Under the pieces are notes generated by a model, which saw nothing but the letters and a program-made list of their open reading frames with translations, did not search any database and was not told the origin of the DNA. Shown here piece by piece: positions 1 to 48,015 of a DNA stretch of 48,015 nt. The DNA lies in NCBI GenBank assembly GCA_002269645.1, contig NIVC01004380.1, positions 1 through 48,015 of the forward strand, written 5' to 3'. The position numbers and the translations under genes are program-made. The first letter of the stretch is position 1, and every line of letters starts with the position of its first letter. Source of the DNA: Macrostomum lignano (lineage: Eukaryota).

Positions 1-1703
1 CAAGTAGACTCTCAATATCAGCATAAACCAAATACAGCGGCGGCAGTCGAGTCTCGTAGGCTGAAAAAGACAAAAGTGCTTTGCCCTCCTCTGGTAAAAC
101 CTCCTCCGTGACTGGCTTTGGCGTTCGAATGAAGCCGCCGCCGCCGCCGCCTGGTTGCTCCTCCGTCGTCTGGCCACACACGTGTTCTTTCAAGATATAA
201 TCCCAAGACGTGGTGTGAATAAAGCTCGCCAGACATTCAGGACAATAGCGCCGGCGTTTAGCACGAGAACTCAACAGCCTATCCAGATTTAGCACCGCCA
301 TGTAGTGTCCATACTTGAATTCTGCGTAAGGTGGTATGAACAGACAATTGACTGGCGCAAGGTCACCAGTGGAACGACGAAAATTAAAAAACAGCACGGC
401 AGTATTCGTGGCATGACTCCAGACAAACACACGCATCAGTCTAATTCGAGGGTTCAGCCGGCAAAACTTTCTGTAGCTCCCAATTGAGTGACGAGTCACT
501 CCGGCGCGCGTAAATCGAAAGCTTTTCAGCCAAGGCCTGTAAGACGCCTTTCGCCTTTTACGGGCTTGCCCTTCGACCTGTGAGGAAAAGACGCTCGACA
601 CGACAGCATACATAAAACAATCATGCTGATCTGCTCGGTGCGGGCGTAGAAACAAAACCGCTCCCGGCATACGACCAACAGCCAGTGGAACGCGGAATGG
701 AACGGAACGGGTCGGAGCGGATTCTGTTGGACCGCCGCCCGCCTGCGCGCCCGCCGCCGCCGCCGCCACGCCCGCCGCCACCACCACCGCCGCCCGCCAC
801 CCGCTCCCCACACGTCCTGCTGCTGTGCCGACGACTGCTAGTGTTCGACTGTAGTAGTAGATATTTTCGGCGGAATATGCACAGCATAACGTCGACCTTG
901 ACAACGCCGAGGAACTTCCAGTTACTACCTCGGGACTGAAAGTTGTCTAATTTAGCTACCAGATCGTTTGTTGCCTCGCTGTACCATTGGTTGAAAACGT
1001 CCTCAGAGAGAAGAAGTACACGGCGGCGCGGCGGCTGGAGCATTCGCATCGAAGGAGACCATAACGACTTTGGAATTGAAAAAGGGCGCGATTACTTCTA
1101 CCTCTTCGTTGTGGGGGATTCACCAACAGCCGTGTCATTGGCGGGGGGATAACGAGTACGATACATTTTTACATTAAGATGTATACATGTACGGAGTAAA
1201 CAGTCCGCAGATCCGAGAGAGTTAAAAAGACGAAAAAGTGGAACTTGCAGTTGTGGAAGTAACTCGCTGGGTGGTTCGGTCTCGCCATCGTCCTCGTCCA
1301 GCAGAGGCGTGAACGTCAGAAAGTTCGCCCGACCTCGGTGTGCGGACTCGGTATGTTGTACCGACCAGCCTGGTGGAGTGTCCTCTTCGATTAGCCGACG
1401 CACTGGTTCTCGAAGTAAAAGTTGGTCTGGTTGATAGCACGAGCCATTGTGCGAGTGCCCATGGAGGGCGGCTTGACTGTTGAATCTCTGCCGGCACACA
1501 GGGCATCTGATTTGTTTCGTCGTCGTCGTCGACGGCTGGAATGGTGTTGGCGATTGTTGGCGATGGGGTGGTTGTGATAATCGCCTAAATAGTTTGCTCG
1601 GTGGCAAAAATAAGGAAGGAATGCACAGCCTTAAGTTTGGTGGACAGTCCGAAAATGTCCTCCGCCGCGTGGTTAAACTGTATTTTACTTTGCAGAGATA
1701 CAA
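1..1703 (-). pseudogene. polB: Family B DNA polymerase, Maverick/adintovirus type, N-terminal half (frameshifted, truncated by window edge)
   Basis: Stitching frames gives: C2H2-like CPVCRQRFNSQAALHGHSH (~1510-1450); EVIAPFFNSKVV (~1095-1060); LDNFQSRGSNWKF (GSGW-type motif, ~950-915); HDCFMYAVVSSV (~625-590); YGHYMAVLNLDRLL...YCPECLASF...EHVC (~315-175); and Exo I VYADIESLL at 28-2. At least 3 frame changes (~1115, ~1030, ~740). The last frame is open from 946 to the edge and is absent from the ORF track. The start codon is not resolved. Confidence 0.82.
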
Positions 1704-1981
1704 TTATGTAGACAATTTGAATATTTAGGAATGAACAGCAGGCTAGTAAGTAGTAGGTCGTTGATGGTGGTTGAAAGAATAGTCAATGGTAGTGTTTTTA
1801 GGGGTCTGAATCAGTTCGAATGGATCATCATGATAAACAAAAATCGTTGGGTACGCATTGGAATTTTACCTTCAGGTAGTAATAGTGGTAGGTGGTGTTT
1901 TTTCAACTTGGTAGGGGCTCGGTTGAATTTAGGTGTTTATTACTACAGCAGAAAATCGTTGTTGTTAATATCAAGTGCATG

Positions 1982-3363
1982 TCAGAGCTCACGACGAATG
2001 ATGCCGCCAACAAGATGGGCTAGATCGGTCGTAGATGTATCCGATCTGATTAGAATTTCGTGTACGTTCGAGTAGTCCTGGTAGTGTCGTGTAAACGCCT
2101 CGTCTAGCGACCGTAGATAGTCCAGGGAGATGCCAGTCTCCTCACCGCTGCGTCCGCGCTGCGCGATGCGTTGAATGGCCAACTCCGGGTCAATGCGCAG
2201 GTAAATAAGCGTCGTGTTCGCGCCGGTAAAGGGTACCCCAGTCGCTTCGAGGACGTCTAGTTGGCGCTGAGCAATCGCCCATTCGGTGTCAGACAGCGAG
2301 CCTTGACGGTGTAGTACGTCTTGGAATGCTCGAGCCGACCCGAGGCAGCGGTCGAGGATAACCACCTTGTTGTTGGATTGTTGGTTAACCTCATTCCGGA
2401 CCTGGGTGGTAACACAAGATTGGCAAAAGTAGCTATACCGTGCGTGTCTTTCGACATTGGTTGTACATGCAGTAGGAGCTATACGAAAGGAATTGCTAGA
2501 TACTATAGTACCACTTACTTTGCTGTCTCTGTCGAGCAAGTCGTGGGAGACGTGCTGTTGGAATGCGACGGCCGGAAGCTCGCCTCGATAGAATGACTGA
2601 AGCAGATTTACCGAGTCCGGGAGGAGCGGGTGTCGCGCGTACTGGTGAACAGGCTCGGGACCGAAGACGGCTTTGTCGGCCCAACCCTCGAGGCGGGAGG
2701 TGAGAGCCAGTTCTCGAAGCAACGTCGACTTCCCGGCACCGATTACGCCCTCCAGGAGAAAAATGCGAGACTGGCTCGTCATATTGGCTAGAATTGGAAC
2801 AAATTCTGGTTTCGGAGCGGCTTCCTGACACAATTGTTTAACAATGTTGATCATTTCTAAAATCTGGCTAGTAGTCTTTGCACCTATTATAACGATCTTA
2901 AGGGAATGAAAAATATTGCACACCGTCCTATTGAGTGGAGCAGTACTACGGAGGGTGATGGCTTGTGGGAATATCTCCGCGTCGTAATACAGCCGAGCTG
3001 TGTGAAACGGCCCGATAAAGTTTTTCAGGGTCGAAAATTTGAGTCCAGGATAGTGGAGCAGACCAACGGTTGTAGAGCTGATTATACGAATCGATGTTTT
3101 GATTAGTTTAATTACTTTAAGGTGTATGAAATTCAGGGCACGTAGAAGTTGGACTCGGGATCTACAGCCATAAAGCGTGAGTAGTCCTCCGGGTAGAACT
3201 GACATGAAAATTGGGGCAGTCCGATACGAAGCATACTTGGCTTGGCGGAGTATAATTTGGAGGGGATTCCCGCCTGGCCTAGACGTTTTTTTAGCCTATT
3301 TAAATCTAACTTTTCTCCTGGAGGGGTACTCGTTCTGGCTTGCACTATTAGTAGGACCAATCT
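1982..3363 (-). CDS. TBP-like (two-repeat TATA-binding protein fold) domain fused to a deoxynucleoside/thymidine kinase; one frameshift near 3192 and one probable intron
   Basis: N-part LIVQ..GEKLDLNRL..YSAKPSMLRI..QFYP/GGLLTLYGCRS resembles TBP repeat 1, and YDAEIFPQ..IFHSLKIVIIGAK resembles repeat 2 (YEPELFPG..IFVSGKVVLTGAK). C-part has dNK motifs LEGVIGAGKST, PEPV, AFQ, ILDRC, IYLRIDPE..QRIAQRGR..E...SLDYL. Confidence 0.78.
2402..2518 (-). other. Predicted 117-nt phase-0 spliceosomal intron in the kinase domain
   Basis: Donor AAA|GTAAGT at 2518 and acceptor TGTGTTACCACCCAG|GTC at 2402. Removal deletes a 39-aa insertion and gives DLLDRDSK|VRNEVNQQSNNKVVILDRC, closer to normal dNK spacing. 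Confidence 0.65.
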
Positions 3364-3495
3364 CTGAAAAGAATAAATACGAGAAAAAATTCTGTATAAC
3401 GGTTAAGATTTTTATATATTTCTGGGTGATGCGTTTCCGTTTACGGAGAATGGTAGTTAGAGTTATAGGTATAGCTTCCCGCCACCAAGTGAACG

Positions 3496-4593
3496 CTAAC
3501 GGTCACTGTGCGAAGACTTCATCATCTTCGCTGTCCATGGGCTCCGTCGAGGCCCCGAGTCCACGTCCCCTAGCGCTGGGTTGGAGGCTGCAGCTTTACC
3601 CGCTTTGGGGACAGTATTGGTAACACCGCTTACAAGATCTTTGACGGGAGTCACCGTGATCCAGTCTTCAGCTGCTGCTGCTGTTGTTGCTGCTCCAGTC
3701 GTCTTGGTGGGGCGTTTGGCGGGGCTGCGACGAGTTGGGCCTTGTCGTCGTTTTCGTCCGCTAACTGGTTTCACTAGCGTCGTCGTAGTTGTTGACTCTT
3801 CTTCCTCAGTTGCGGCGGTGGCGGCGATTGGAGTCGACGTAGTTGGGATGTGAAAACGCAAAGCTTGGGCTAGCATCGGCAGGTGTTTCGGGTCGTCGTC
3901 GACCAGTGTCAGCGAGCGAAGGGCGAGGCCGAGGCGCCATGTCTTGCTTTCCTTCTGACGATAAAGACTTGTGAGCTGAACGGAGAGATGGTAAAGACCG
4001 CTAAGTCCCCTCAGCTCGCTTGTGTCAACTTCACGTGGGTGTTGATTAGGCAGTGCTCGAAAGGTGAAACATGGTAGTGTAGGTTTTATGGCAATCCACT
4101 GGGCAAAGCCCAGGTCGCCTTCCTCGGTGGCGCGGGAGATGCGAAGCAGCGGCATCGGATCGCCCATTTGCTTTAGTTTGATAGCGATGCCTCTTTCGAC
4201 TTGTCTAGCGAGAGCAAGGGGAATGAAAAGCAGTAAGAATTCATGGTCTAGTGAGTATGCACATGTAACAAGGATGGCGAATTCTTCAACTTACTTGATG
4301 CATTGTAGGAATTTGCTGCAAAAGGCCGATGATGACAGTCCGATGGCCACCGCCTCACGGTCTCCGGCTAAAAACTCTCCGGCATCCTGTATTTGGACAC
4401 CACGAAGAATCTCGACTGGGGTCGTGGTTTGAATCACTAGTGGGGACCTCCTGTCGACTTTGGGGGGCGTCCACGTTACGCTACGGAAGGTGCAGCTTGC
4501 TGTAGGAGCGTTGGGTTCGCCTAGGTGGAGATTACCAACGTCGGCTTGGATAGCACCCGGTTGGAATACGGATTCGGCAGCGAAACCAGCCAT
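3496..4593 (-). CDS. Two-exon gene (4593-4295 + 4204-3496), putative OB-fold ssDNA-binding protein with a low-complexity T/A/K tail
   Basis: ATG in ACACCATGG context. ORFs 4291-4593 and 3496-4167 share a frame; the intervening stop lies in CAA|GTAAGT, and a pyrimidine-rich acceptor ends at 4205 (90-nt intron). The spliced product reads FCSKFLQCIK|QVERGIAIKL. The SSB call is from a recalled pattern only (LVIQTT.P; YHLSVQLTSLY..WRLGLAL). Confidence 0.6.
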
Positions 4594-4680
4594 GGTGTTG
4601 ATCTTGCCTTGCTCGGAACGCGTGTTTGAAGTGCCTTCTATTTGGAGTCTTAATGAAGATTTTATTTCGTTTAGGGGTAC

Positions 4681-4690
4681 CTATTTTATA
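4681..4690 (-). promoter_or_regulatory. TATA-like box upstream of the SSB-like gene
   Basis: TATAAAATAG on the minus strand, ~90 nt upstream of the ATG at 4593. Confidence 0.35.
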
Positions 4691-5292
4691 GAGTTGTTTT
4701 TTAAGGGGGGCGTGGGATCGTTGAAGATTGTAGTTGGTCTTCTGGCTGGTGAATTCCCAGGGACTTTGACATTTTGTTAAAGAGTTTAGGGTTGGTGAGA
4801 TGCGATGCAAATATACGTGCGTTAAGAGATAATTTTGGCATTATAGTAGTGCGTGCAAATCGGTGAATTGATTTGACATGCTATTTAAGTTCACTAATTT
4901 GGTGTTCACTAGTGAATAGGAAATTGATCTCACTCGATGCGTTCGGGTTATAGTAGGCTAGGGTCGGTGAATTGACTGCATGCATTTCATGGGCGTAAAT
5001 TGCGTGCTCATTGCTGGATTGATAAAAATTTGGAAATGCCTGCACCCTAGTTTGGGTCACGGGTGACGTTTTCCCATAGAGGTCGGTTTGTAGAAAGATA
5101 CCGAAAGGGGGGTTTTTACTGGCTTCGGCATTGAGTGGTTGGTTGACAGCGCGGCGCTATCTATATGCTATATGCCGATAACGGAAATTGTGCAATCCCC
5201 CGCGTGGGTTGAGTTTCATATGAAGGGGAGATCTAGGTCATTGAGTTAGAGAGGAGACTTGGAACTGTTCGAACGATAGATTGCGAATGACA

Positions 5293-6747
5293 ATGGCCGA
5301 GGCTCAGGACGGATCGCGGGAAGAGTATTGGAAGGCACAGGAGGGATACTTTGAAGAATTGGAACGCAAATTCGCTTTCGTGGACTACGGTAGCGATCGA
5401 CTCCGACGAGTGTCGCCCTTGAGTAGACCGTCTGGTAAGTATAGTTTTTTATGACTGCCACTCCTCTTGTATGGCACCGTATTTTGATAGGGCATCATAT
5501 ACCGACTTCAGTAGACGGGCAGCAAGACCTCCGTCCGGTCGCGGTAGTTCCGCCTAGTGTGCGTGGCCGCGAGGATCCCTATGACGGGGAAATTACTATA
5601 GGGAGGAATACGTTCCCACCAAGGACAGAGGTATGTAATATGCATTCTGAGTTCGATTGCTTTGTGGTAGTATAACTTACTATGCCTTCATCTACTGGTA
5701 GGATTACTTCAACGCAAGGACGGCAGCTTTGGAGGAGCTACGTGAGGGGCGACCCGAGGTTCGCTATCGTGACGCGGGTTACGACGTAAGATTGATTTTT
5801 AAGTTAGTAGTGCCTGAGCTTGTACTTGACGAGTTCATTTTGCCTTTTTTAGCAACTATGCATGAGTGACCGAGTAGTTTTGCAGCACCAGTGGGCGACG
5901 GCAGTTTGTACGCGAATGCATGAACTGGTGCCGGAGATGGTGGCTCGGGGAAGGGAGGTACGAGACAATATTCGTATGCTTTTCTTATCACATATTGCAT
6001 TAATAAATAAAGAATTTCCATTCTCATTTTAGGAGTTTTTAGCCATGGTGAGTGGAGATGTGCTTTTTGGTGTGGTATAATTCACTCGTCCGTATGAAAA
6101 TAAATTTACTTGTCTGTTCTTTATTCTTGAATCGTAGATTCGCGGACGTGGTCGTCGGACTCGAAACGAGGTATGGATATTGTTATTTTAATTGAGTGTG
6201 ATCCTAGTTCAATATTGTAGCCCAGTTGTATTTTCTGCTGTTGCATATTCCAGGCTGCGTGTGTTTCGTCCAGCCCCACACAGCTTACAATGGTCAGTAG
6301 TCGCTTGGCATTGATTAAACATTTAAGATATAAAGGCTGGAATCTTATTTGACATTTCAGGCGAATTGCGCGATCGGAGAAGGGCGAGCTCCCGGACCAC
6401 CGCAGCCATGTGTCCCGGTTAGTGATACATCGAAAACCATGCTCTTTATTTTGGCGGTATGTACATAAGTAGCTCGGTTTGGGAGGTGCTCTTCACGTGC
6501 CGGTTTAAGATGGAGTTACGAGGTTTTATGGTAGTAGAATTCGTGTTATTTAGTGTGAGACGGGACCGTTAATGCATGAACCAGTTCTACTTTATGCTGC
6601 CACGCATTCAAGACTGCATGGCATTGATTAAAACTTGAGGGTGTAAAACAGTTGAAATCTTATTTTTTTAAATTGCAGACAAATTTCGTGTTCGGACGGG
6701 GGCGGACTCCTGGACCGCCGCAACCTTCCACGGTTGGTGTTACGTAG
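5293..6747 (+). CDS. Predicted 9-exon gene (~240 aa), unknown function
   Basis: Exons 5293-5434, 5491-5630, 5702-5785, 5853-5957, 6033-6047, 6138-6170, 6254-6292, 6361-6456, 6679-6747. All 8 introns are GT..AG (56, 71, 67, 75, 90, 83, 68, 222 nt), the frame stays open across every junction, and seven introns are phase 0. The product has an internal repeat: EEYWKAQEGYFEELER..FVDYGSDRL vs EDYFNARTAALEELRE..YRDAGYDQL. Confidence 0.68.
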
Positions 6748-6870
6748 AAGAATATGCTCTTCTTTGTAGGGTGTTCACAGTCATATCGGGTGGGGGGGGC
6801 AGGTTGGTAGTGGTTTAGGGTGAAATATGCAAGTCTATGGTGGTAGAGTTTGTGTTACAACAAAGAGTTA
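6305..6870 (+). repeat. Diverged tandem duplication of an intron-exon-intron module (~6305-6560 and ~6620-6870)
   Basis: Both copies begin ggcattgattaaa..aatcttattt..cag and encode G.GR.PGPPQP...MLF. Confidence 0.75.
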
Positions 6871-7994
6871 TTTATACAATCAAATTTCAGATTCCGAAGC
6901 CGCCATCCGGAAGTGGATTCCCTGGTGGTGGTAGGGTTAGTAAATTTTATATTGATTGCAGCGTAGTAAATTGACCTGGTAAATGTATGTCATCTTCTTT
7001 GGTTTCAGGATGCGGACCTGTCGTAGGCATTCGGGACTCGGCGTGTGGGTTGGTTGACTCCGTCGCCGCCGTCGGCTTGTTTATGTGGACTGTAGGGGAC
7101 TTGTATTTGTAAATGTTTCGTATGCGACTTTTATTCAGTGAAGGCTTGGACATATGTGTCTATTTATTCTTTTGGATTCGCTCTGTGTGCAGTATCGTAC
7201 ATGTAAATACAGTGTGGCGTAGATCCAAGGCCTTCGTTCGATGTAAGGGCTTGCCAGCGGGGTGTCTGTCTTGTTGTGTCATCGGTGGAAATATAGCGTT
7301 GTTAAAGGATAGGTTTGGATCTTGTTTGTCTTAGGGCTAAAGAGAGGGGTGATAAACTCGGGGTTTGAGTTTTCGGTGGTGTGGTTAGTTCTAGGGCTTC
7401 TGGGGTGGGGGGTCTGTATTATGGGGTCTGGTTTATCTCAAGTGGGGGGTGAAGCATGGGGGGTGGGAGTCGAATCACCCCGGGGGAATCTTAACGCGGC
7501 AATATTTTTTAAATCGCATGTAATTTGCTTTAGTTCTTTAAATTCAACTTTTATTCAATTTTATTTTATTTACTTGTTAAAAACTTTTAATACACAAATG
7601 TACCGGTTCGTCAATGAATGTATTAAAACTTGTAGTGCTAAAATACACGGATTCGATGTTGGTTGAAGTAGCTACTGAAGCCGGCGTTCAATCGAGAGGG
7701 CGGATAAGATAAACAAAAGTGCAAGATATGCATATGTAGATGCCGCGGAGACGGATGAAAAGTAACAGAAAATATGCGAAAAAGTATAAGTACGAATATG
7801 AGTGGTTGGTATCGAGGTTTTGAGTTCTATGGGTAAAATATTGAAGCCTAGTGACGGTCCCCCTGGTTCTAATCTGTACTACATAAAAATGGAAAATACT
7901 ATCCTGATCCTAAAATTGTAGACGTTTCGAGAAGTTTAACAATACAGCATAATAATGTTTGTTAGCAGGTAGGCGAGTACACTTAATGGCGGAT

Positions 7995-8576
7995 TCAGTC
8001 AATCAACACGGCCGTGGACGATAGTGGAAAGGTCGGCATGGACGGCGAGCGTGGTGTTGAGGTCCATGTTGGGGCAGCACGGCGGTTTGGGTTCGGTCCG
8101 GGTGAAGGTGTTTCGGTGCTGACTCTGCAAATAAGAGCGGAATGCTTCGGTAGTTGGGGGCCATGTTTCGGATAATGATTAGAATTTACTTACGTCTGAG
8201 TGGCTTGAGAATACTCTTGGCTACGGAAGTCATTCGGACGGCGGGACTCGGGAGAGCGGATGCGTTTGTAGCAGTGGTGAATCAAAGCGAGCACCAGGAA
8301 CAGAAAAATAATTAGACAAACGACCTTCAGGGCCACCAGTTGCGTACTTGCTAGGTTGATTAGTTTGTTGACGCTTTCTCCGATTGCGGTAACCATTTGG
8401 GTATTATTGTATGCCTGGACGGCTATACGATTTCGGAGCTCTTCTTGGGAGTAATGGGAATTCTCGGATAATTGTCTGACAACTGCCGAAAGTTGTCGGG
8501 TAGTTTCCGCGTTGTTTTGGGTGGCTTGGGCCTGTTTAATAAACACAGCCAGTATTTTTTGTAGTCGGTTCGCCAT
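7995..8576 (-). CDS. Small single-pass membrane protein: coiled-coil N-terminus, TM helix, basic then Pro/Ser/Thr-rich tail (2 exons: 8576-8194, 8124-7995)
   Basis: TM segment LVALKVVCLIIFLFLVLALI followed by HHCYKRIR. The ORF stop at 8190 lies inside donor AC|GTAAGT; acceptor CTCTTATTTGCAG ends at 8125 (69-nt intron). Splicing adds TVSTETPSPGPNPNRRAAPTW...AVLID*. Confidence 0.62.
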
Positions 8577-9065
8577 TAAGATGGTTATACGAGACTCGGT
8601 GAACTAATAATAAACTTGCCAGACTATTCACTCGAGAATCCGACTTGACGCTGTTTTTAGCGCTTGCGTCTAGAAGTTTGTATCTGTTCAAACCCTCAAG
8701 TCGTGGGGAGGGGTGGGGGTGGGGGGTAAAGGTTGTGCGCGGGTGGTTGATGAGAATCGGATTTTAATCGATTAATGTGGCGGGGGAGTGTACATTTCGC
8801 TGTGTGCGCCCTAGCGTTTGGGGTAAGGTCTTTTCTCGGAAATGTAGCACTTATGGTCCGGCGGGAACGGAGTATGGATCGTAGAGTTGGTATAGAATGC
8901 AAGTGGTTTATTTACGGAGCAAGTGGTTATTATGATCTATTCAATATCTATTACTGGAAGTGACGCAAGCCGCGCTCGTGGATAGTGTTGCCTAAGGCCG
9001 AGTAAAGCGTATACCTTATCGTGCGTTTAACACGGTTTCGGAATTTGAAGTGCTTGGTGAATAGT

Positions 9066-9467
9066 CTATTGGTTTCCACCTACTCGGGTGCGACTGCGAG
9101 TATAAGATAAGTAGGGGTACGATTTGTAGGCGGCTCGCTTGAGCGTGTTAGGACGGGTGGGGACTGTATTCATTTTTACATGTAAAAATGAGGGGTGCGT
9201 GTAATATACTAATACTACTAGCGTGTTGTCGAGTGTGGTCTGATTCCCTTCAGCTGGCGGGGGCAGAGCTCGGATTATGTCTGCAATTTCTTTCCCTGCT
9301 GTGTAGCTTAGCAGCTTGCACCGTTGGTTTTCATTGGTGATGCCCGAAGCGTCAATGAAATCTTGAAAGCGTGCTGACCACTCGCTCCAGCGTTTGCCAG
9401 CATTGTGAGGGTCGCTAATAATTGAGAACGGCTCTGGTGGGGGTAGTGAAACGTAGTTAGTGCCCAT
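9066..9467 (-). CDS. Gypsy-type gag N-terminal domain-like ORF (~133 aa), not followed by pol or an LTR
   Basis: MGTNYVSLPPPEPF..AGKRWSEWSARFQDFIDASGI..QRCKLLSYTAGKEIADII..LVYYTHP matches the W..W..RF / LL...G gag N-terminal pattern of many invertebrate Gypsy elements. Confidence 0.62.
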   Translation of the reverse strand: MGTNYVSLPPPEPFSIISDPHNAGKRWSEWSARFQDFIDASGITNENQRCKLLSYTAGKEIADIIRALPPPAEGNQTTLDNTLVVLVYYTHPSFLHVKMNTVPTRPNTLKRAAYKSYPYLSYTRSRTRVGGNQ

Positions 9468-9676
9468 TGCCCTCGCGTAGGTTTGTGTGTTTGCGACGCC
9501 ACTGTAGGAAGTCTGACAAGCCGTGTGAGTTTGCTTGGATCGATACAGATAGCAAAGTTCCAAATACGAGTAAATGCCAATGCGTGTATTTAAATATTAG
9601 TCAATGGGGGGTTGGCGCGTGCATGGTTAGAGAGTTGAATGTACGCCGATATAGAATGACACTGCTAAGGCGCAAG

Positions 9677-12600
9677 CCTACAATCTCTACAATCTCATCT
9701 CTCCTTTCTCCCCTCTTCTTACATCCCTCTCTTATCTCTATTATCTCTATCTCTTCTCTTCTCACTCTTCTCTCCCCCTCTTATCTTCTCTCTTCTCTAT
9801 CCTTTCTACTCTCTCCTCTCCTCTTGACCCTCTGTCATCTTCTTTCTGCTCTCTCATCTCTACTCTTTTCTCACTCTTCTCTACTCTCCTCTCATCGATC
9901 CTCTGTCTCATCTCTCCCCCCCTTCTCACCTTTACTCTTTCCTCTCCCTCCTTTCTCCCCTCCTCTCGCTTCTTCCTCCTTTCTTCTCTGCTCTCTCCTC
10001 ACCACTTGTCTCTTCTCTTATCTTCCATGTTTTCTCTTATCCCCGTCCCGCCTCTCCTCTCTTCTAATAGTCTATTCCGTCTCCTTTCCACTCTCATCTG
10101 GCCCGCACATAAGCTGGATTCTTTATCTGGCTTTTGAAGTAAAAGTCTGCCGATCACTGCTTCGAAAGCCAGTTTGTGGGACGTACTACTCTCATCGTTA
10201 TTCTCATGCTTTGATCACGTCATCTTTCTTGCCAATTTGCAGCCCTGAAAGGAATTTGTGTATCTTCAGCTCCACTGCAGTCTGCATCAGTCTAACAACC
10301 AAGGAAATACGCATTTCTTAGGCCATTTAAATTTCAAAGTACTTTTAAGAGAAACTTAAAATTTCCATGGTGTGCCTAATTTAGTAGGGTTGTATTTCAT
10401 TGCATCGCATCACCTTTTCATAAATATTTCGCTTTTACAAACCATGCTGGATTGCCTCGATTTGCCAATTGCCATCCACTGTTAAACTGCTGCAGAGTTT
10501 GCCTATACAGAGGGGAGGGCAGTGGTTAGAATTTCTCACTAAACTGTTATGGCTAAACGTAGCCTCTCGACTCTCGGGGTGCGAGAAGGCTATGAAAAAA
10601 GTTATTCCAAAACACTGTACATTTGCTATGTACATTCAGTCCTATCGCCTGACCCTTCGTCTGAGCTGGGGGAATGAGTGAGTGAGCGGCACAAACAACA
10701 GAAAAAGCAGACAAACTTCACATGCTTACAGTTTCTGTCCTGATTAAGATACAGAGTTGAGACTTTACATGTAGGCAGAAAATGAGTCAATAAAGAATTG
10801 TGTCAAATTTGAAGTCAATCGCTTCACGTGGAGCAAAACTATGGCAGCCGAAAGTTAGGCATTTTAAAACCTATTCACACCCTTTGCCAGGGATAGCGAC
10901 GTTTGCCTGCGGGACGTTTGCCAGCCGACGTTTGCCTGCGGGACGCTTGCCAGCCGACATTTGCCAGCCGACGTTTGCCAGCCGACGTTTGCCAGCGGGA
11001 CGTTTGCCAGCCGAAGTTTGCCTGCCGGACGTTTGCCAGCCGACGTTTGCCTGCGGGACGTTTGCCAGCCGACATTTGCCAGCCGACGTTTGCCAGCCGA
11101 CGTTTGCCAGCGGGACGTTTGCCAGCCGAAGTTTGCCTGCCGGACGTTTGCCTGCCGAATGTTTGCCAGCCGACGTTTGCCAGCCCACGTTTGCCAGCCG
11201 ACGTTTGCCAGCGGGACGTTTGCCAGCCGAAGTTTGCCTGCCGGACGTTTGCCTGCCGAATGTTTGCCAGCCGACGTTTGCCAGCGGGACGTTTGCCAGC
11301 CGAAGTTTGCCTGCCGGACGTTTGCCTGCCGAATGTTTGCCAGCCGACGTTTGCCAGCCGACGTTTGCCAGCCGACGTTTGCCAGCGGGACGTTTGCCAG
11401 CCGAAGTTTGCCTGCCGGACGTTTGCCTGCCGAATGTTTGCCAGCCGACGTTTGCCAGCGGGACGTTTGCCAGCCGAAGTTTGCCTGCCGGACGTTTGCC
11501 TGCCGAATGTTTGCCAGCCGACGTTTGCCAGCCGACGTTTGCCTGCCGGAAGTTTGCCAGCCAAAATTTGCTAGCCAATATAAAGCCAGTCAGTGAAAAA
11601 TTTGATACTGAAACATTCGCAGTTTAGCGGTTTGACAAAAACCGTTTTTACTCCAACTTTTTGACGGTTATTCGCATGTATACAAGTTTGAAAGCAAAAT
11701 ATATAAATTATGCAGTTCATCAGTCTAACGTCTAATATCTAGTTTAACAACGATTTTGGCACAACATATCAAAAGATGAACATTGGGTTTGCCTCGTATG
11801 AAAGCAATAACAATTGTTGTGCTGAAAAGATGAAAACTTCCTATCTCCCTATGGCCTTCAAAACATTTTTCATAGATTTCGAGTGCTGCGTACTTCTACT
11901 TTAGTAGTCCTTGGCATGACTAAGCTTTGCATACGTAGTGTCTAGCGCTTGCTATTCTACTAGCTTGCTACTGGTGGCTTGTCTGGCTTTCAGCTATATA
12001 GCTTACTATAAAAACGTACCGCATTCGACTCGTCTACACATGTACGTTGAGATCGCGGTTTCCTTGCTTACTTGAGTAGTAAAAAAACAGCATTGGAATC
12101 AATTTGCTTACTTTTAGATCTCCCAATGAACTGAGAAATATATGAGCCAGAATTACCGCTCAGCAGCTCTTTTTGTTTGCCTCATAACTTAATCGCTGGA
12201 GATTCCCGTTGTAATCTGCGCGTCTTCTTTCGCACATCAAAAATCAAACATCTCAAACTGGGAAAAACGATACACAATTGTCAAAAGTAAACAATATTTT
12301 CACATTCAAAGAAAATCGTTGTTAAACTGGATATTAGATGTAAATCTATATAAATTGCATAATTTATATAGATTTTGCATAAATTTCATAATTTATATAT
12401 TTTGCTTTCAAACTTGTATATATGCGAATAACCGTCAAAAAGTTGGAGTAAAAACGGTTTTTGTCAAACCGCTAAACTGCGAATGTTTCAGTATCAAATT
12501 TTTCACTGACTGGCTTTATATTGGCTAGCAAATTTTGGCTGGCAAACTTCCGGCAGGCAAGCGTCGGCTGGCAAACGTCGGCTGGCAAACATCCGGCAGG

Positions 12601-13358
12601 CAAACGTCGGCTGGCAAATGTCGGCTGGCAAACGTCCGACTGGCAAACGTCCCGCTGGCAAACGTCGGCTGGCAAATGTCGGCTGGCAAATGTCGGCTGG
12701 CAAATGTCGGCTGGCAAACGTCGGCTGGCAAACGTCGGCTGGCAAACGTCCCGCAGGCAAACGTCCGGCAGGCAAACTTCGGCTGGCAAACGTCCCGCTG
12801 GCAAACGTCGGCTGGCAAACGTCGGCTGGCAAACGTCCCGCAGGCAAACGTCCGGCAGGCAAACTTCGGCTGGCAAACGTCCCGCTGGCAAACGTCGGCT
12901 GGCAAACGTCGGCTGGCAAACGTCGGCTGGCAAACGTCCCGCAGGCAAACGTCGGCTGGCAAACGTCCCGCAGGCAAACGTCGTAGACCCCCTTTGCCCA
13001 GATCGGTATCGGGAAAGAGAGGCAGGCGGGCGGAGGTTGGGGTGGCTGCCTCGCTGAAAAAAACAGCCTAACTTTAAAAGTGCACAGCACCGCTCAGGAT
13101 TAACTTTGAGACTCGAAATTTTACATGATTGTGCCAAAATAGTTGATCGCGCATTTTGAGCAGTTTTTTGTACTTTTAGGCAGGAAGACTTGATTCTAGG
13201 AAATTTAAAGGTAGCCTAAGACATTCTCCGTAGTAAGTTTAGGGTGGGTGTAAAGTTTGGTGTCATTTGGTTGAGCGGTTTGGGAGTCCATAGCGAAGTA
13301 ATTTGTCCACAGACAGACAGACAGACAGACAGACAGAGTTTTGATTTTTAAATGTAGA
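9677..13358 (-). mobile_element. Non-autonomous Helitron-like unit L1 (3'-truncated), interrupted by a foldback element
   Basis: CT-rich block (9677-10090), a conserved core shared with L2, and (ACAG)n near a 5' terminus TCTACATTTAAAAATC at 13358. This layout resembles Lep1-like non-autonomous Helitrons. Confidence 0.55.
10890..12990. mobile_element. Foldback-like non-autonomous DNA transposon (2.1 kb) with long modular inverted arms
   Basis: Arms ~10890-11756 and ~12312-12990 are inverted copies built of 14-15-bp GTTTGCCAGCCGAC-type tandem repeats plus ~190 bp of unique sequence. Ends GGG...CCC. TSD cctttgcc(c)a at 10881-10889 and 12991-13000; single-copy empty site at 19160-19169. Confidence 0.85.
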
Positions 13359-15694: not shown

Positions 15695-18283
15695 TTAACG
15701 CGGTCGATTGCAACGCTCGTAGGTGTTGCAGCGACCTCGCGCACGAAGAGCAGCCTTCAGAGAGCGATGTGCTCGCTCCACTAGACCATTGGCTCGGGGG
15801 TTATACGCTGAGGTTCTTATGTGATGGATGCCGAACAGCTTAGTAAACTCTTCCATGAGCTCTGCACGGAACTGGGCACCCTGGTCCGTAATGAGCGTCA
15901 GGGGTGGGCCAAAGCGTGACACCCAGGCGCTGAGGAATCCTTGAGCTACAGATGCGGCAGAGATGTCTATCAGCGGAATGGCCTCCAACCATCGGGTGTA
16001 GGCGTCGATGACTGTCAGTAGATAACGTGACTGTAGTTGACCGTTAGCCTCTGGTGGTGTTAGTGGTCCGACAATATCCATGTGTACCGTCGCGAATCGC
16101 TGAGAGGGAGTCGGTAACTGGTGTAATGGTCGGTGTACATGCTGAGTTACTTTGTTGGCTTGGCATTGTAGGCATTCCTCCGTCCAACGGCGCACATCGC
16201 GAGAGATCTCCGGCCAGAAGTAGCGATGGGTGATCAATCGACAGCTCGCCTTGACACCAGGATGGGCCAATGAATGAATCGATGTGAAGATGTGTTTTCG
16301 CAAGTCTGGTGGAACGACTGGTCGCGGATTGGGGTATGACGTTTCGCAGAGCAGTTTACAGTCAGTCAGTCCGATTTCGAACAACTTGAAAGTGCTGGAT
16401 TGCGATGGCAACGTTGAATCCAGCTGTTGAGCGCGTGCAATTGCGGGCAGGTCAAAACTGGGCAACATTTGAGTGTCTTCGTCCGTTGGGGCTATCTCAT
16501 GAGCGGCCGCGACCAGAAATTCTGATGTTGCGATGTTGACAGCGTCTTTCGAGGGACGGGACAGCGCATCAGCAACGACGTTGTCTTTACCGGCGATGTG
16601 AACCACGTCCGTGACAATCTCTGAGATTGCTGACATCTGGCGCTGCTGTCTGTCCGAGAAGCGTTCCTTGCTGCTTGCAAAGGCTCCGATAATTGGCTTG
16701 TGGTCGCAGAATACCGTCACTGTCTGGCCTTGCAGCAGGTGCTTCCATGCCTTGATGGCGGCGAAGATAGCAAGTAGCTCCCGGTCGAAGGTGCTGTATT
16801 TAGTTTCGGTGTCGGAAAGTTTTCTGGACAGAAACGCGAGAGGCGTAGAGTCGCCGTCTACGACCTGGTGCAGACAGGCACCGATCGCCATGGCACTGGC
16901 ATCCGTTGTTACTGTGAAGTTGGCCTCCGGATGCGGAAAAGCGAGAGTGACCGCGTCAGCGAGCGCGTCTTGCAGCGCCCGCCATGCCTGGTCATGTTCT
17001 GGGAGCCAACTGAAGGTGCCGTGCAAAAGTTGTCGCAGCGGGAGTAGCAGCTGTGCGTAGTGCTGAATGTGGCGTTGGTAAAAGCCGAACATGCCGAGGT
17101 ATCGCTGCAACTCCCTGCTGTCCTTGGGTGGAGGAAGAGCACGTAGGGCGTCGACTCGATCGGACAGCGGTCGGATCCCGTCTCCAGAAATCTGATGGCC
17201 CAGGAACTCGATTGTATCCTGATAGAATTGGCAATTGTGAGGGCTTACACGCAGTCCGTTGTCGCACAGGCGTTGCAGTACGGCATGTAGATGTGTCTCG
17301 TGCTCCTCGCGGCAGGTGCTGTGGATCAGAATATCGTCAATGTAGGTGACCACGAATGGCATGTCGCGGAAAATCGCGTCGACGAACCGTTGAAAGGTAC
17401 TGGCCGCGTTGCGTAGTCCAAATGGCATGCGCAGATACTCAAACGAACCGAATGGCGTGCAAACTGCAGTCTTCTCTATGTCCTCCGCCGCGATGGGTAC
17501 GAAGTGGTAAGCTTTGACAAGGTCAAGCTTACTGAAAACCCGTGACCCGTGAAGTCGATGGTGAAAGTGTCCGATGTGGGGTATCGGGTAGCGATCTGGC
17601 TTGGTTACTGCGTTGAGTGCGCGGTAGTCGCCGCAGGGACGCCACGAGCCGTCCTTTTTCTTCACCATGTGAAGAGGGGACGCCCATGGACTGGCGGAAG
17701 GTCGCACGATGCCGAGCTGCAGCAGTTGGTCAAACTCCGCCTTCGCTGCGTCGAACTTGGCTGGAGGGAGCGGACGAGGTCGGCAGAATAGCGGCTTGCT
17801 GTCGGTAATTATCTGGTGGCTGACTGTGCTAGACGAAGGTGCGGACGAATAGTCTGGGGCTTCTGCTAGCTGCGGGAAAGCATCAAGGGGTGTCGCTAAC
17901 ACTTCCGATGTTGCTAGCACCTGTGGGGCTGAGTCTGCTGTTGCTTGAAGAGCTGCATGAAGTTGAGTAGTCGGGTCATGCAGACGTCTGTTCCGCATGT
18001 CAATAAGGAGACCGAACTTAGCCAGGAAGTCGGCTCCCAGAATCGGCGGTGTATCAGCAACGATGAAGTTCGCGGGAAACAGGCGGCGTAGCTCTGGGAC
18101 TGCGACAGACAGTGAGCACTGACCGAGAGTACTAAATTCGCGACCATCGACGCTGCGTAGCCGGACCTGCGTGGGTGCCAGCAGGTGGCGAGGTGCAAGG
18201 TCCAAAGGCAGCAGGGAGCGCTCAGCACCGGTGTCCACAACAAAACGAACCGTTTTTCCGAACAATTTACAGGGTAACAACAA
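15695..18283 (-). CDS. pol: Gypsy pol: protease-RT-RNase H-integrase (integrase C-terminal part internally deleted)
   Basis: VVDTGAE; [29 protein letters not shown]; [25 protein letters not shown]; HHCC (HSLAHPG..CLQC); [22 protein letters not shown]. The C-terminal [14 protein letters not shown] follows in another frame. Confidence 0.95.
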
Positions 18284-18352
18284 GGAAGCGGCCTCGTTGA
18301 GGTCATGGCTCGGCCCTGGCGCATGACCTACGCGTTTGTTGGACTGGCAGCG

Positions 18353-18365
18353 CGCTCTGCTACCA
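18353..18365 (-). other. Primer-binding site, initiator-Met tRNA type
   Basis: TGGTAGCAGAGCG, 3 nt after the 5' LTR. Confidence 0.8.
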
Positions 18366-18368
18366 CTT

Positions 18369-18566
18369 TGTAGCGGGTGCTACAACTATGAAAAAGCAGA
18401 TAATTGCAGTGGAACAAAAGTGTGAAGCTAGCGATAGGAAATGCCGCTCTGGCTTCTTAGCTTCGCGCTGTCGAACTGTATTTGATTATTAACAACTGCC
18501 ATAGACAATAGAAGCATACTTAGTGTTGTAGTGTTGTAGTGTTATATTAAAACACATAGTGCTATA
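18369..18566 (-). repeat. 5' LTR
   Basis: Direct repeat of 15260-15457, followed on the sense strand by the PBS. Confidence 0.95.
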
Positions 18567-21514: not shown

Positions 21515-22470
21515 CTAAAACAAAGCAGAGACACCACCGGCAAAAGTCACAGCAGCCTCCGCTGCCTGGTGAAACTGGGGGAGATAACGCTGCACAGCCT
21601 CACTTCTCCAGTCACCAATGCGCATGATATCAGACACTGGGAGGCCTAGCACAGACGCCCAGGTAGCTCCTCCTCGTCGCAGACTGTGCGCGGAGTAAGA
21701 TCCTGGTCGAACGCCGGCTGCGGCAAACTTGTCACGGAGGAAGCAGTCCAGGTGCCTCCCAGTCAGCAGGCGCAAGCCGCCACTTCCGTCGGCGTAGGAC
21801 CAGAGCGGTGACTCTGCTGACTTCAACCCGTTGGCGCGGATGTGTCGCTCGACTGCGCTCACAGGGCACAGGGCTGGCTGCCGCGCCAATCTCGGCAGCA
21901 GTACCCGGTGACTGCGCTCCTTAAACTGGATGGTCTTGCCGAACTCGCAGCGCAACACCAGACCCTTCGGATGCTGAAGCAGGTCGGCGCGCCGGGAAAG
22001 GGCCGGGCCTTTGCCAGTTCGCGGCAGAAGGCTGGACTTTCGCAACATTCCCCACCAGCAGCAGATGGTCACAGCCCAGCAGGCCAGCTGCAGCCTGTCG
22101 GTCTCGTCAACTAGTCGTCGCATCTCCGTCAGCATTGTAGGTGACACAGGCCGCTTTCGGTTCACGCGCAGTCCGAGGACCCGTTTAGCGCCGCGTAGGA
22201 GAAGAACCGCTGAAGCGTGCTTAGTCAGGTCCGGCGACGAGTTTATTCGAAACCAGAGCGACAGAGAGCTGCAGACTGCCGAGATGCTGCTGTAGGCATG
22301 TAGCCGTGTGCCGATCAGACTGGCCAAATAGTTCAGCAGGCTCGTGACGTTGCAGGACACTGGATCGCAGCCGGTATGGCGGCAGAACTCCTGCCACTCA
22401 CGGATGTGTCTATTGACTGCCTGCGCCGACCGCGGTGCGTACGCAGCGCTCAGCAGCGATGTAGCGCGGC
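21515..22470 (-). CDS. Tyrosine recombinase (DIRS/Ngaro type)
   Basis: CWWGMLRKSSLL, YSAHSLRRGGATW, IGDWRSEAVQRY. The frame stays open upstream of the annotated 22360 start (AYAPRSAQAVNRHIREWQEFC), overlapping the end of RNase H. Confidence 0.92.
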
Positions 22471-23040
22471 TGCTAAGAGAGTCTGACGCAGCTGGGCGGC
22501 CTGAAAATGAAGAAAGGAGGCGGTCGCCAAGCCAAAAGCATGCTGATGCAGTGATTGTAGAATGCTAGGACAAATAAAACCATAACAGCGGAGTAAAAAG
22601 TTTAACAGCTGGCCTCGCTCGTGCAACCGCGAGGCAGCGTCAGCAAAAATTTGAAAATCACCAGGCACATGAAACGCGCGAATGCTCATTCCAAAACGCA
22701 AACACATCAGAGCCACCGTCTGCAGCAGCCGCTGCAACGCAGGACACTTTGAAACGCCTTTGTTGATGATGTGACAGGCCGTCTGGTTGTCGCAGTAGAT
22801 GCTCACCTTGCAACCTTTGAGCACATCCCTCCACCTCATCACTGCCAGCAGAGGGGCCAACGCTTCCTTGTAGTTGATCGGCAGGTCAGCGAAGACAGAT
22901 CCTGCATCCTTCTCCCAGTCCAGGTAGCATCAGTCAAACAGACCATCCTGGTCACGCAGCAGCGCCGCACCACCTCTGCCGCACGCATCGGATTCCATCG
23001 CCACAACTCGATTGTAGCTCGGCCACAGCTGCAGCTTCAA
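22450..23040 (-). pseudogene. DIRS-type RNase H, with an internal stop; RT absent
   Basis: ESDAC..D*CYLDW..INYKEAL..IYCDNQ..HVPG..ADAASR; joined directly to truncated gag sequence. Confidence 0.85.
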
Positions 23041-23650
23041 CAGCTTCCTTCACTCTGAAGGTGACTCTCCCTGATTTGTCAATGGACTGAGTCACTCCTG
23101 CCTCCTGCTGCTTTCGCTTGTTAATAAACTCAGGGATTCGGTACACCTTGCCTACAGACCGACTGGGCTCTTGCTGGGCAGCATCTTCATCGTCAGACCA
23201 CAGGTTAATGAGCAACTCACCGGGATTCTTTGACGTCGCAGGCCTTCGCTGAAGTTGGCTGACTTCCGCCTGAAGCAGAGCGGCCTCCTTGCGTAGCTTT
23301 AGCAGTCGGAGCTGCTTCTCAGCCTCCACCAGCTCGTCGTCTAGGCCGCCAGCCGCGTCAGACTCTTGACCATGTTGTACCGACTCGTTCGCGATAAAAG
23401 GCAGTTGCCTCTCCGCCGTAGCGCCGTTTCTTCTTTCACGCGTCGTCACTGTGGCAGCTTCATCTTGCTCCTCGTCCTCGTCGTCTGCATTCTCAAGATC
23501 GGAGGCGATGCGCACGAGGTGCGCCCTCAGCCGCATTAAAAGTTCACATTTTCTGCCTTGTGTTGAAAGCCCTAGGCTCTGAAGCTTCTCACGTAGCGCC
23601 CTTACAGTGCTAGGCGCTTCGGATGCAACTGGCTCGTTAGGGTTTGGCAT
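22952..23650 (-). CDS. gag-like ORF1 with N-terminal SAP-like motif, 3'-truncated
   Basis: TVRALREKLQSLGLSTQGRKCELLMRL (SAP pattern), acidic stretch and coiled coil; ATG directly after repeat A1. Confidence 0.68.
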   Translation of the reverse strand: MPNPNEPVASEAPSTVRALREKLQSLGLSTQGRKCELLMRLRAHLVRIASDLENADDEDEEQDEAATVTTRERRNGATAERQLPFIANESVQHGQESDAAGGLDDELVEAEKQLRLLKLRKEAALLQAEVSQLQRRPATSKNPGELLINLWSDDEDAAQQEPSRSVGKVYRIPEFINKRKQQEAGVTQSIDKSGRVTFRVKEAVEAAAVAELQSSCGDGIRCVRQRWCGAAA

Positions 23651-23851
23651 GATTGTGCAAAAAACTCAAGCGGAGAGCTGCGCGCAAATTGAGTCAGAAA
23701 ACGCGGTGAGAGGCTCACCTAAAAAGGCTAGCAGGCGGAGGGGGGGTGGGGGCCAGCCCCCACCCCACACAGATGCACAGAGACAGCAAAGGGGGCGGGC
23801 TGATCACTAAAGCCGGTTTGCACAGGCGCAAGCACCCATGCAAACCAAAGC

Positions 23852-32391: not shown

Positions 32392-33106
32392 TTTAAGGAA
32401 ATAGTAAATAGAAAAGGAAAAAAAGAGCAAAAATATGCAAATAGCAAAATCAGCAAATCAGATTTGAGAAATCTGTTATATGGAAAGAAAAAAACCTGAA
32501 TAGAAAATTCGCCTCTTTAAGAAGCGCCCATAGTGTACACGATTTTTCGTCAGTAAAATAATCAATAAAAAAGAGCCTCAAGAGCCCACCAGTCTGTCCG
32601 CCCAGCCAATGCAAGGGGCTGACTAAACGCGCCGATAATAAAACCAATCGAATCTCGACACAGTATATCTGTTTACACTGTACAACTGCTATGTACACTC
32701 AGCCCAAGCCCTACCCCCCAGTCTGGGGGAATCATTAAATTGAACTTAACCCCCCAACACGCGGGGGGTTTTATTTGCATTGAACGCAGAACACGCGCAC
32801 CCACCACCCCTCAATACACAGCGGCCCGCGGGCGGAGGTTGGGGTGGCTATTTTTACAAACTGGCTGCAGCCCCAGGCAGAGTGGCCAAAGAAGGTTATT
32901 GGGGGGTTAAAAAAGCAGTTTTCTGCTTTTTAAGGGATGTTAAAATTGGAAAATTAAAAATTAAAATAGCCTAAAGCCTGCTCCGGAAAATTTGCAGTTT
33001 TCCAATATAAGTTTCAACGCTGACTTGGCAGAATTGTAGGAGTTCACTTGCTACATACATACATACATACAGACAGACAAACATCGCTAGAGTTTTAGTA
33101 TAAGGA

Positions 33107-48015
<14,909 letters not shown>

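Follow-up and report, generated by a model that had tools for sequence, protein, structure and literature searches.

Splice acceptors in place of start codons in the replication arm of a flatworm Maverick/Polinton

The stretch analysed here (the window), 48,015 nt of contig NIVC01004380.1 (C4380) in the Macrostomum lignano assembly GCA_002269645.1, has a contig end as its left edge, and positions 1-9219 are almost certainly the right 9.2 kb of a Maverick/Polinton of about 20.3 kb, with the flatworm as host. The element is a multi-copy, virus-like Polinton in which genes for a TATA-binding protein (TBP)-like protein and a protein-primed family B DNA polymerase (PolB) begin at splice acceptors without an ATG, which is its stronger oddity and one absent from an earlier note on this DNA. 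That the host spliced leader supplies the PolB start is fairly probable, and the chances are even that the TBP-like protein is made as a fusion isoform with the single-stranded DNA-binding (SSB)-like protein encoded upstream. Throughout, G000 denotes the genome assembly, C-numbers its contigs and L-numbers stretches of them that were inspected.

Gene starts in the conserved replication arm

Searches of G000 with TBP and the PolB N-terminus returned 56, 72 and 74 matches, and about 35 further loci were inspected. The comparison covers six lineages (window, C2529/C1090, C889/C272, C1975/C2285, C84/C424 and C209/C1680), among which C2529 and C889 group together, leaving five independent at depth; in trees of TBP and the PolB N-terminus the deep order of the lineages is unsettled, and hence the ancestral PolB start too. 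One arm order is found on a single strand in all six: a TATA-like box 62-102 nt upstream of the SSB-like ATG, then the SSB-like, TBP-like, deoxynucleoside kinase (dNK) and PolB genes, with dNK lost in C84. The SSB-like gene holds an intron at one codon in every lineage despite exon protein identities of 25-42%, and this intron is thus as old as the six-lineage radiation. Its SSB identity is a weak assignment, taken from likeness in the Atlas (0.90-0.94, with recognition below threshold) to viral clusters in which 10-12% of members carry DUF2738/DUF5871, and exon 2 gave no Pfam match and no convincing PDB sequence match; the gene called in the earlier note stands, and only its label is left weak. 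The kinase of that note proved to be a dNK, whose ATG is preceded by an acceptor-like site (AG 2789-2788) and which is in frame with TBP in the window lineage only.

The TBP label (PF00352, with a two-repeat saddle fold) is firm, as is the earlier surprise at finding such a gene in an element of this kind: an alignment profile searched against PDB TBPs gave a best E of 2e-9, 10 of 12 members scored individually gave a match, and the structural model has a pLDDT of 89.8 and a TM of 0.75 to TBP (the fold from a single sequence was poor, pLDDT 48.8). A word-indexed protein search with TBP in two length ranges and with PolB residues 1-480 gave no match at E 0.001, and scans of IMG/VR and JGI gave no confirmed relatives. 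HMMER returned seven matches, namely four environmental homologues, one cellular-type TBP and two repetitive matches that were dropped; two of the four environmental homologues have Gln at the acceptor position, a hint at the protein level.

Directly before the first strand of TBP, all six lineages have a pyrimidine tract and YAG, with no ATG there; in C84 an in-frame stop even coincides with this acceptor. The first invariant methionine is residue 44 (12 of 12 rows), after a confidently modelled strand and helix. At its other end the frame stops at 180-202 aa in three lineages, and in two it continues for 120-160 codons over dNK in another frame (L052, L055, L064). PolB begins at TTCCAG before a conserved proline in four of the six lineages, and a genomic ATG precedes the same proline in the remaining two (C84 and C209/C1680), in one of which a nearby acceptor-like site is out of frame, which is incompatible with a fusion model. 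The first downstream methionine of PolB lies 85-124 codons in, past the zinc finger, and the approximately 120 residues between the acceptor and that methionine are conserved.

Neither a conserved local ATG-bearing donor exon nor a conserved cis donor between dNK and PolB was found, and a scan of six elements for an ‘ATG|GT’ mini-exon found none in the window or C1975, the matches elsewhere not recurring between elements. The host very likely trans-splices, since G000 contains 43 exact copies of the published 35-nt ATG-ending Macrostomum leader (reversed control, 0). A GTAAG donor follows two of six inspected copies; the other four (L090-L093) lack it and look like relics. Further evidence comes from contigs of four of 24 listed public sequencing runs (X1, X2, X4 and X16) aligned to the window, where X16 behaves as DNA and X1, X2 and X4, from three studies, are only guessed to be RNA. 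The contig of X1 record 2 lies on 872-1536 with 24 leftover letters that fit nothing shown, and X1 depth is zero at 1564-1651. Its stop at 1536 includes the acceptor G, as a leader junction would, whereas each of the three cis donors checked has T or A as its last base and would give 1535; this stop is a hint in support of a leader junction.

In the scheme proposed, the replication genes would be read as one operon-like unit by host Pol II starting at the TATA box, the SSB-like intron would be removed in cis, TBP would be reached either by a conserved alternative donor, giving an SSB-TBP fusion, or by the leader, and 3′ ends would form after dNK. The ATG-ending host leader would be trans-spliced onto the PolB acceptor, supplying the first methionine of the polymerase.

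Several observations weigh against this scheme. None of the listed runs is on record as RNA; the 24 leftover letters belong to one contig of one run and their sequence itself is not displayed; and an X2 contig (826-2209) crosses the PolB acceptor unspliced. X1 covers 1664-2086, past the predicted poly(A) signal, and no AATAAA was found between dNK and PolB in the C1680 lineage, the signal being at that place in all three other dNK-bearing lineages first scanned. C889 and C1975, two of the four acceptor lineages, have unaligned in-frame ATGs 15 and 36 codons before the acceptor, from which PolB could start without splicing. A phase-0 GT(A/G)AG cis donor is also present at the same L|VS in SSB exon 2 (window 3633) of all six lineages, in frame with the TBP and PolB acceptors and 259-619 nt above the former.

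This donor is central to the strongest alternative, cis-splicing in the manner of adenovirus E2, whereby SSB exon 2 would be joined to the TBP and PolB acceptors and SSB-TBP and SSB-PolB fusions would be translated from the SSB ATG with no leader. In a control, 32 of 95 Val-Ser pairs in long frames of five elements were coded GT(A/G)AG, giving ∼0.005 for five independent lineages; phase 0 suits both acceptors, the acceptor-like site before the PolB ATG of C84 is still in frame, and adenovirus pTP and polymerase mRNAs share 5′ exons (PMC11304566; here and below, the literature is cited from excerpts). Set against this, no joint from 3633 is present among 15 of the 16 joints, from which all joint figures given here are drawn; contigs of X1 and X2 read through 3364-3633 without splicing; the X1 end at the PolB acceptor falls on 1536 instead of 1535; and downstream of the donor the SSB tail retains a motif conserved in four lineages, which places the unspliced SSB form under selection as well. 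Cis-splicing is thus unlikely for PolB, where the leader is favoured over fusion, and for TBP the fusion and the leader are about equally likely and may perhaps coexist.

A start without any splicing, at a downstream methionine, a lineage-specific upstream ATG or near-cognate codons, with the acceptor-like sequences incidental, is improbable. The invariance of TBP Met44, the in-frame ATG upstream of the PolB acceptor in two lineages and the unspliced contigs crossing both acceptors would agree with it, but a start at Met44 would remove the opening strand and helix from a fold modelled with confidence, the TBP acceptor of C84 is an in-frame stop, the PolB zinc finger precedes the first methionine, and a pyrimidine tract and YAG stand at one codon in all lineages.

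The element, its introns and its surroundings

At the right end of the element, a terminal inverted repeat (TIR) is followed by a target-site duplication (TSD; Table 1), the empty site being an uninterrupted long terminal repeat (LTR) retrotransposon, L119, with one copy of the 6-mer that follows 9219; matching 6-mers also flank the elements in C1391, C2529, C889 and C1975. Since the element ends at 9219 and L119 represents the empty site, the gag gene (150 scored matches in G000), which the earlier note had placed within the element, is target and not cargo, and the extent of 1-9677 given there overshot the right end and missed about 11 kb at the left. Seven further copies of the window's first 1.5 kb occur in G000 at 96-99% identity, and sibling stretches hold the whole element, 20.3 kb in C297 and 21.1 kb in C362, bounded by TIRs of ∼65 bp (98-196 bp in other lineages). 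Mavericks/Polintons are roughly 15-25 kb long.

The left part beyond the contig start (about 11 kb), for which the earlier note had proposed a search, was read from these siblings and consists of single-frame genes, each with its own ATG, as in an intronless core, next to a PolB that begins at a splice acceptor in most lineages. PolB is whole in a sibling as a 1426-aa frame matching PF03175 (E 3e-20, above the Pfam cut-off), which bears out the PolB N-terminus first recognised in the window. The integrase has rve (E 5e-7, 30.3 bits, just below the cut-off of 32.6) and Chromo (E 1.5e-5) matches, and the double-jelly-roll major capsid protein scores 0.98 in the Atlas to clusters with PF21738 on 24-30% of members, with no match by Pfam or PDB sequence search. 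A candidate P-loop packaging ATPase has a visible Walker A motif and a weak Pox_A32 match only (E 0.023). Conserved frames of 181 aa and of about 300-318 aa, without Pfam matches, stand in the expected places of genes that we take, from motifs and position, to be an adenain-type protease and a penton; of the packaging ATPase and penton sought by the earlier note, both thus have candidates, neither with a strong family match. The siblings also carry pX-like, PLA2X and dUTPase genes. With respect to Alpha (pPolB1) and Beta (pPolB2) adintoviruses, PLA2X is a marker of the Alpha module, and an HNH-type endonuclease VII domain in PolB (L097:1530-5807; E 2.5e-8; no OTU domain match in a Pfam scan) recalls the HNH insertion of pPolB2, described as unique to that of oomycetes and terrestrial nematodes (PMC10748475).

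The presence of TIRs, 6-bp TSDs, PolB, integrase and capsid therefore identifies a Maverick/Polinton. The proposal of the earlier note, a nuclear DNA virus of a lineage not yet described, separate from Mavericks/adintoviruses and with a gag-like gene, would fit the lack of close relatives of TBP or the PolB N-terminus in the word-indexed, IMG/VR and JGI searches, but with canonical termini and TSDs, a chromodomain integrase, a double-jelly-roll capsid, PLA2X and pX-like genes, and gag outside the TIR, this reading is largely refuted and very improbable.

Thirteen introns are modelled, two more than the 11 first counted in the same four genes: ten in a plus-strand cargo gene and one each in the dNK, SSB-like and membrane protein genes. 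Nine are seen as canonical GT..AG joints in X1/X2/X4, and X16 shows none of them; seven of the nine are supported by runs of at least two studies. The minus-strand joints 2402-2518, 4205-4294 and 8125-8193 each occur in X1, X2 and X4, and six joints fall in the cargo gene, where X1 and X2 share four and X1 alone and X2 alone have one each. The four introns of this gene without a listed joint are GT-AG and needed for the open 236-codon frame. All 14 tested splice-site pairs are intact in C297, C362 and C1431, the three closest siblings, and one or two pairs are lost in the more diverged C1391 and C4741 copies. The introns are, with high confidence, real, and the reliance on host splicing suggested in the earlier note holds. 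The joints 151/3671, 152/3669, 5772/5853, 6727/6890, 7283/7564 and 7991/9095 were rejected as introns, being non-canonical; the last, spanning 1.1 kb and present in X2 and X4 and not in X16, removes the membrane protein gene and is probably a deletion variant.

There is little room for the idea that the spliced genes belong to the host and merely adjoin a fragment of PolB, or that introns were inserted after integration. Introners do colonise integrated polinton-like elements in dinoflagellates (PMC11957031), and the dNK intron (absent at that place in three other lineages inspected) and the 10-intron gene are lineage-restricted, but all genes lie within TIRs at several insertion sites with different flanks, the splice-site pairs are intact in all three closest siblings, and the SSB-like intron predates the split of the six lineages, so that the idea is refuted for that intron and for location.

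The 10-intron gene is an exchangeable, lineage-restricted cargo. Nine of its ten introns are in phase 0, and GC is 0.59 in exons and 0.37 in introns. All its genomic matches in G000 lie within element copies, and no host paralogue was found there. In other lineages the slot holds other genes, with an uninterrupted 237-aa frame in C2529 (L051), is nearly empty in C1975, and in C889 (L065) is likewise without the 10-intron gene. Cargo exons 8 and 9 (6361-6417 and 6679-6732), with their upstream introns, form an internal duplication that is 70% identical. The membrane protein predicted in the earlier note was again predicted as such and has a 29% identical homologue in the C272 copy.

Table 1. 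Features of the element and its right flank, in window coordinates
Feature	Position	Strand	Remarks
PolB 5′ part, protein-primed family B, N-terminal C2H2-type zinc finger	1..1535	-	runs off contig start; no start ATG
Phase-0 splice acceptor before first conserved PolB codon (Pro)	1536..1541	-	predicted trans-splice site
AATAAA, predicted poly(A) signal	1936..1941	-	between dNK stop and PolB acceptor
dNK gene	1982..2782	-	PF01712, E 5e-24; own ATG
dNK intron, 117 nt	2402..2518	-	GT-AG; joint in X1, X2 and X4, not X16
Two-repeat TBP-like gene	2783..3363	-	no ATG; phase-0 acceptor (AG 3365-3364); frame interrupted near 3190
Candidate alternative intron, SSB exon 2 donor to TBP acceptor	3364..3633	-	in frame; would give SSB-TBP fusion
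SSB-like gene, two exons, basic linker, acidic tail	3501..4593	-	frame interrupted near 3552
SSB-like intron, 90 nt, phase 2	4205..4294	-	joint in X1, X2 and X4
TATA box, predicted arm promoter	4684..4690	-	97 nt before SSB-like ATG
Cargo gene, 11 exons, 10 GT-AG introns	5293..7026	+	open for 236 aa; without known family
Cargo introns 1-5	5435-5511, 5631-5701, 5786-5852, 5958-6032, 6048-6137	+	GT-AG
Cargo introns 6-10	6171-6253, 6293-6360, 6418-6678, 6733-6890, 6936-7008	+	GT-AG
Predicted single-pass membrane protein gene, about 170 aa	7995..8576	-	69-nt intron 8125-8193
Right TIR, ∼65 bp	9156..9219	none	Maverick-type terminus at its end
6-bp TSD	9220..9225	none	one copy only at empty site in L119
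gag of LTR retrotransposon	9226..9682	-	outside element; 99% identical to uninterrupted copy

Individual copies differ in integrity. In the window copy, frames are interrupted near 1028-1112 (PolB), 3190 (TBP-like) and 3552 (SSB-like), and these breaks may be assembly errors, as X1, X2, X4 and X16 all differ from the window there. TSD 6-mers have their partner on another contig, the right one of the window at C297 left, that of C297 at C1668 left and that of C1431 at C362 left (9220-9225, L013, L014, L018, L022, L042), and flanks were therefore probably swapped by the assembly between near-identical copies. The C1668 copy (L024) has its right arm replaced by a 1.6-kb inverted duplicate of the left end, cutting the TBP gene. 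In the dNK-less lineage, both inspected copies (C424 and C753; L057-L062) also lack most of PolB, with the genes for capsid, integrase, SSB-like protein and TBP retained; some 27 copies with short PolB frames score like these two, which suggests an expanded non-autonomous family.

Elsewhere in the window, the pol of an LTR retrotransposon (protease, reverse transcriptase, RNase H and integrase) occupies 15698-18379, and repeats of 14-15 bp in inverted arrays, as well as a tandem repeat of ∼2.3 kb that contains CT-rich tracts, are found at 10872-12983 and 32900-48015. Regions 21518-23665 and 25751-30833 hold what we presume, by eye, to be a tyrosine-recombinase retroelement fragment and a Helitron-like Rep/helicase; the two frames scanned there gave no corresponding Pfam family.

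A candidate promoter motif and late programme

Across five elements, the motif TATAAG(C/T) occurs at 33 sites on the coding strand and at one site on the opposite strand. It precedes the penton-like gene by 43-51 nt in five of five, the pX-like gene by 43-88 nt in five of five and the core-like gene by 50-51 nt in three of four, and the SSB-like promoter has a canonical TATAAA-type box instead. TBP has four intercalating phenylalanines, of which the two in the C-terminal repeat recognise the 5′ TA step and the two in the N-terminal repeat the 3′ end of the box. In the viral TBP the C-terminal-repeat pair (F132 and F152) is invariant, and the N-terminal pair has given way to other residues, M44 and Y57 being invariant close by; a changed N-terminal pair would therefore fit a changed 3′ half of the box, if these roles apply. 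Judged from sequence, the viral TBP might recognise TATAAG(C/T) before structural genes as a herpesvirus-like late switch, a proposal that we make tentatively. Two observations weigh against it: enrichment is modest, with 0-12 of 300 shuffles reaching each element's count, and several TATAAG(C/T) sites in C1975 precede no long frame. The joint reading, in which a leader-supplied PolB start is combined with an SSB-TBP fusion that would activate capsid genes at TATAAG(C/T) on replicating genomes, is rather unlikely to hold in full.

Known systems and implications

Animal Mavericks/Polintons, or adintoviruses (PMC8502044, PMC8097293), share with this element a length of ∼20 kb, TIRs, a 6-bp TSD, pPolB and an rve integrase, as well as capsid genes, PLA2X and pX-like genes; their packaging ATPase has a candidate counterpart here. 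In the excerpted text of PMC8502044, mention of TBP is confined to the Fig. 5 legend, which concerns MELD viruses and related elements and belongs to the part on non-animal datasets. Vertebrate Mavericks that are intact reportedly have no introns, whereas here an old intron resides in a conserved replication-arm gene and PolB and TBP start at acceptors. Closer in this respect are nematode Mavericks (10.1101/2022.07.12.499685), in which a variable region near the TIR has intron-bearing genes beside intronless core genes; unlike in those, no host paralogue of the cargo was found here and splicing reaches the conserved arm. Intron-bearing Maverick cargo and post-integration introners are thus already known, and the arm with acceptor starts is the unusual part.

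Three further systems supply parallels for that arm. Flatworm spliced-leader operons (PMC8629364, PMC9851317) have in common with it an AUG-ending leader, YTNCAG acceptors and operon-like spacing, and host proteins reportedly start at the leader AUG (>40 Schistosoma cDNAs; Cheng 2006, as cited); there the leader goes to host genes, and here it is predicted to go to the polymerase that replicates a virus-like element. Adenovirus E2 (PMC11304566) likewise encodes a single-strand DNA-binding protein and a protein-primed polymerase on one strand with splicing from shared 5′ exons, which are its own cis exons, whereas here the leader would be host RNA and the unit includes TBP and dNK. Late transcription in beta- and gamma-herpesviruses (PMC12529657, PMC4893493, PMC7162547) employs a TBP-like protein of the virus and a modified TATA motif ahead of late genes; that protein is a TBP mimic, whereas this 20-kb element encodes a two-repeat protein recognisably homologous to TBP, which may bind the motif. 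No description of leader-supplied starts or of a TBP-linked promoter motif in Polintons was found in the literature, supplements, Repbase and most subscription papers aside.

The family offers testable parts, namely a single predicted promoter for the arm, acceptors replacing start codons, a TBP that has diverged and a motif that may be its target, in an apparently genetically tractable flatworm, and, to our knowledge, Polinton gene expression and its early/late programme are largely unstudied. Annotation based on open reading frames would truncate genes that start at acceptors. A late programme like that of herpesviruses would, if true, operate in a 20-kb integrating element. If the leader does supply the PolB methionine, a virus-like element would depend on trans-splicing for an essential protein, its horizontal transfer would be limited to hosts with an AUG-ending leader, and its replication would be tied to trans-splicing cells.

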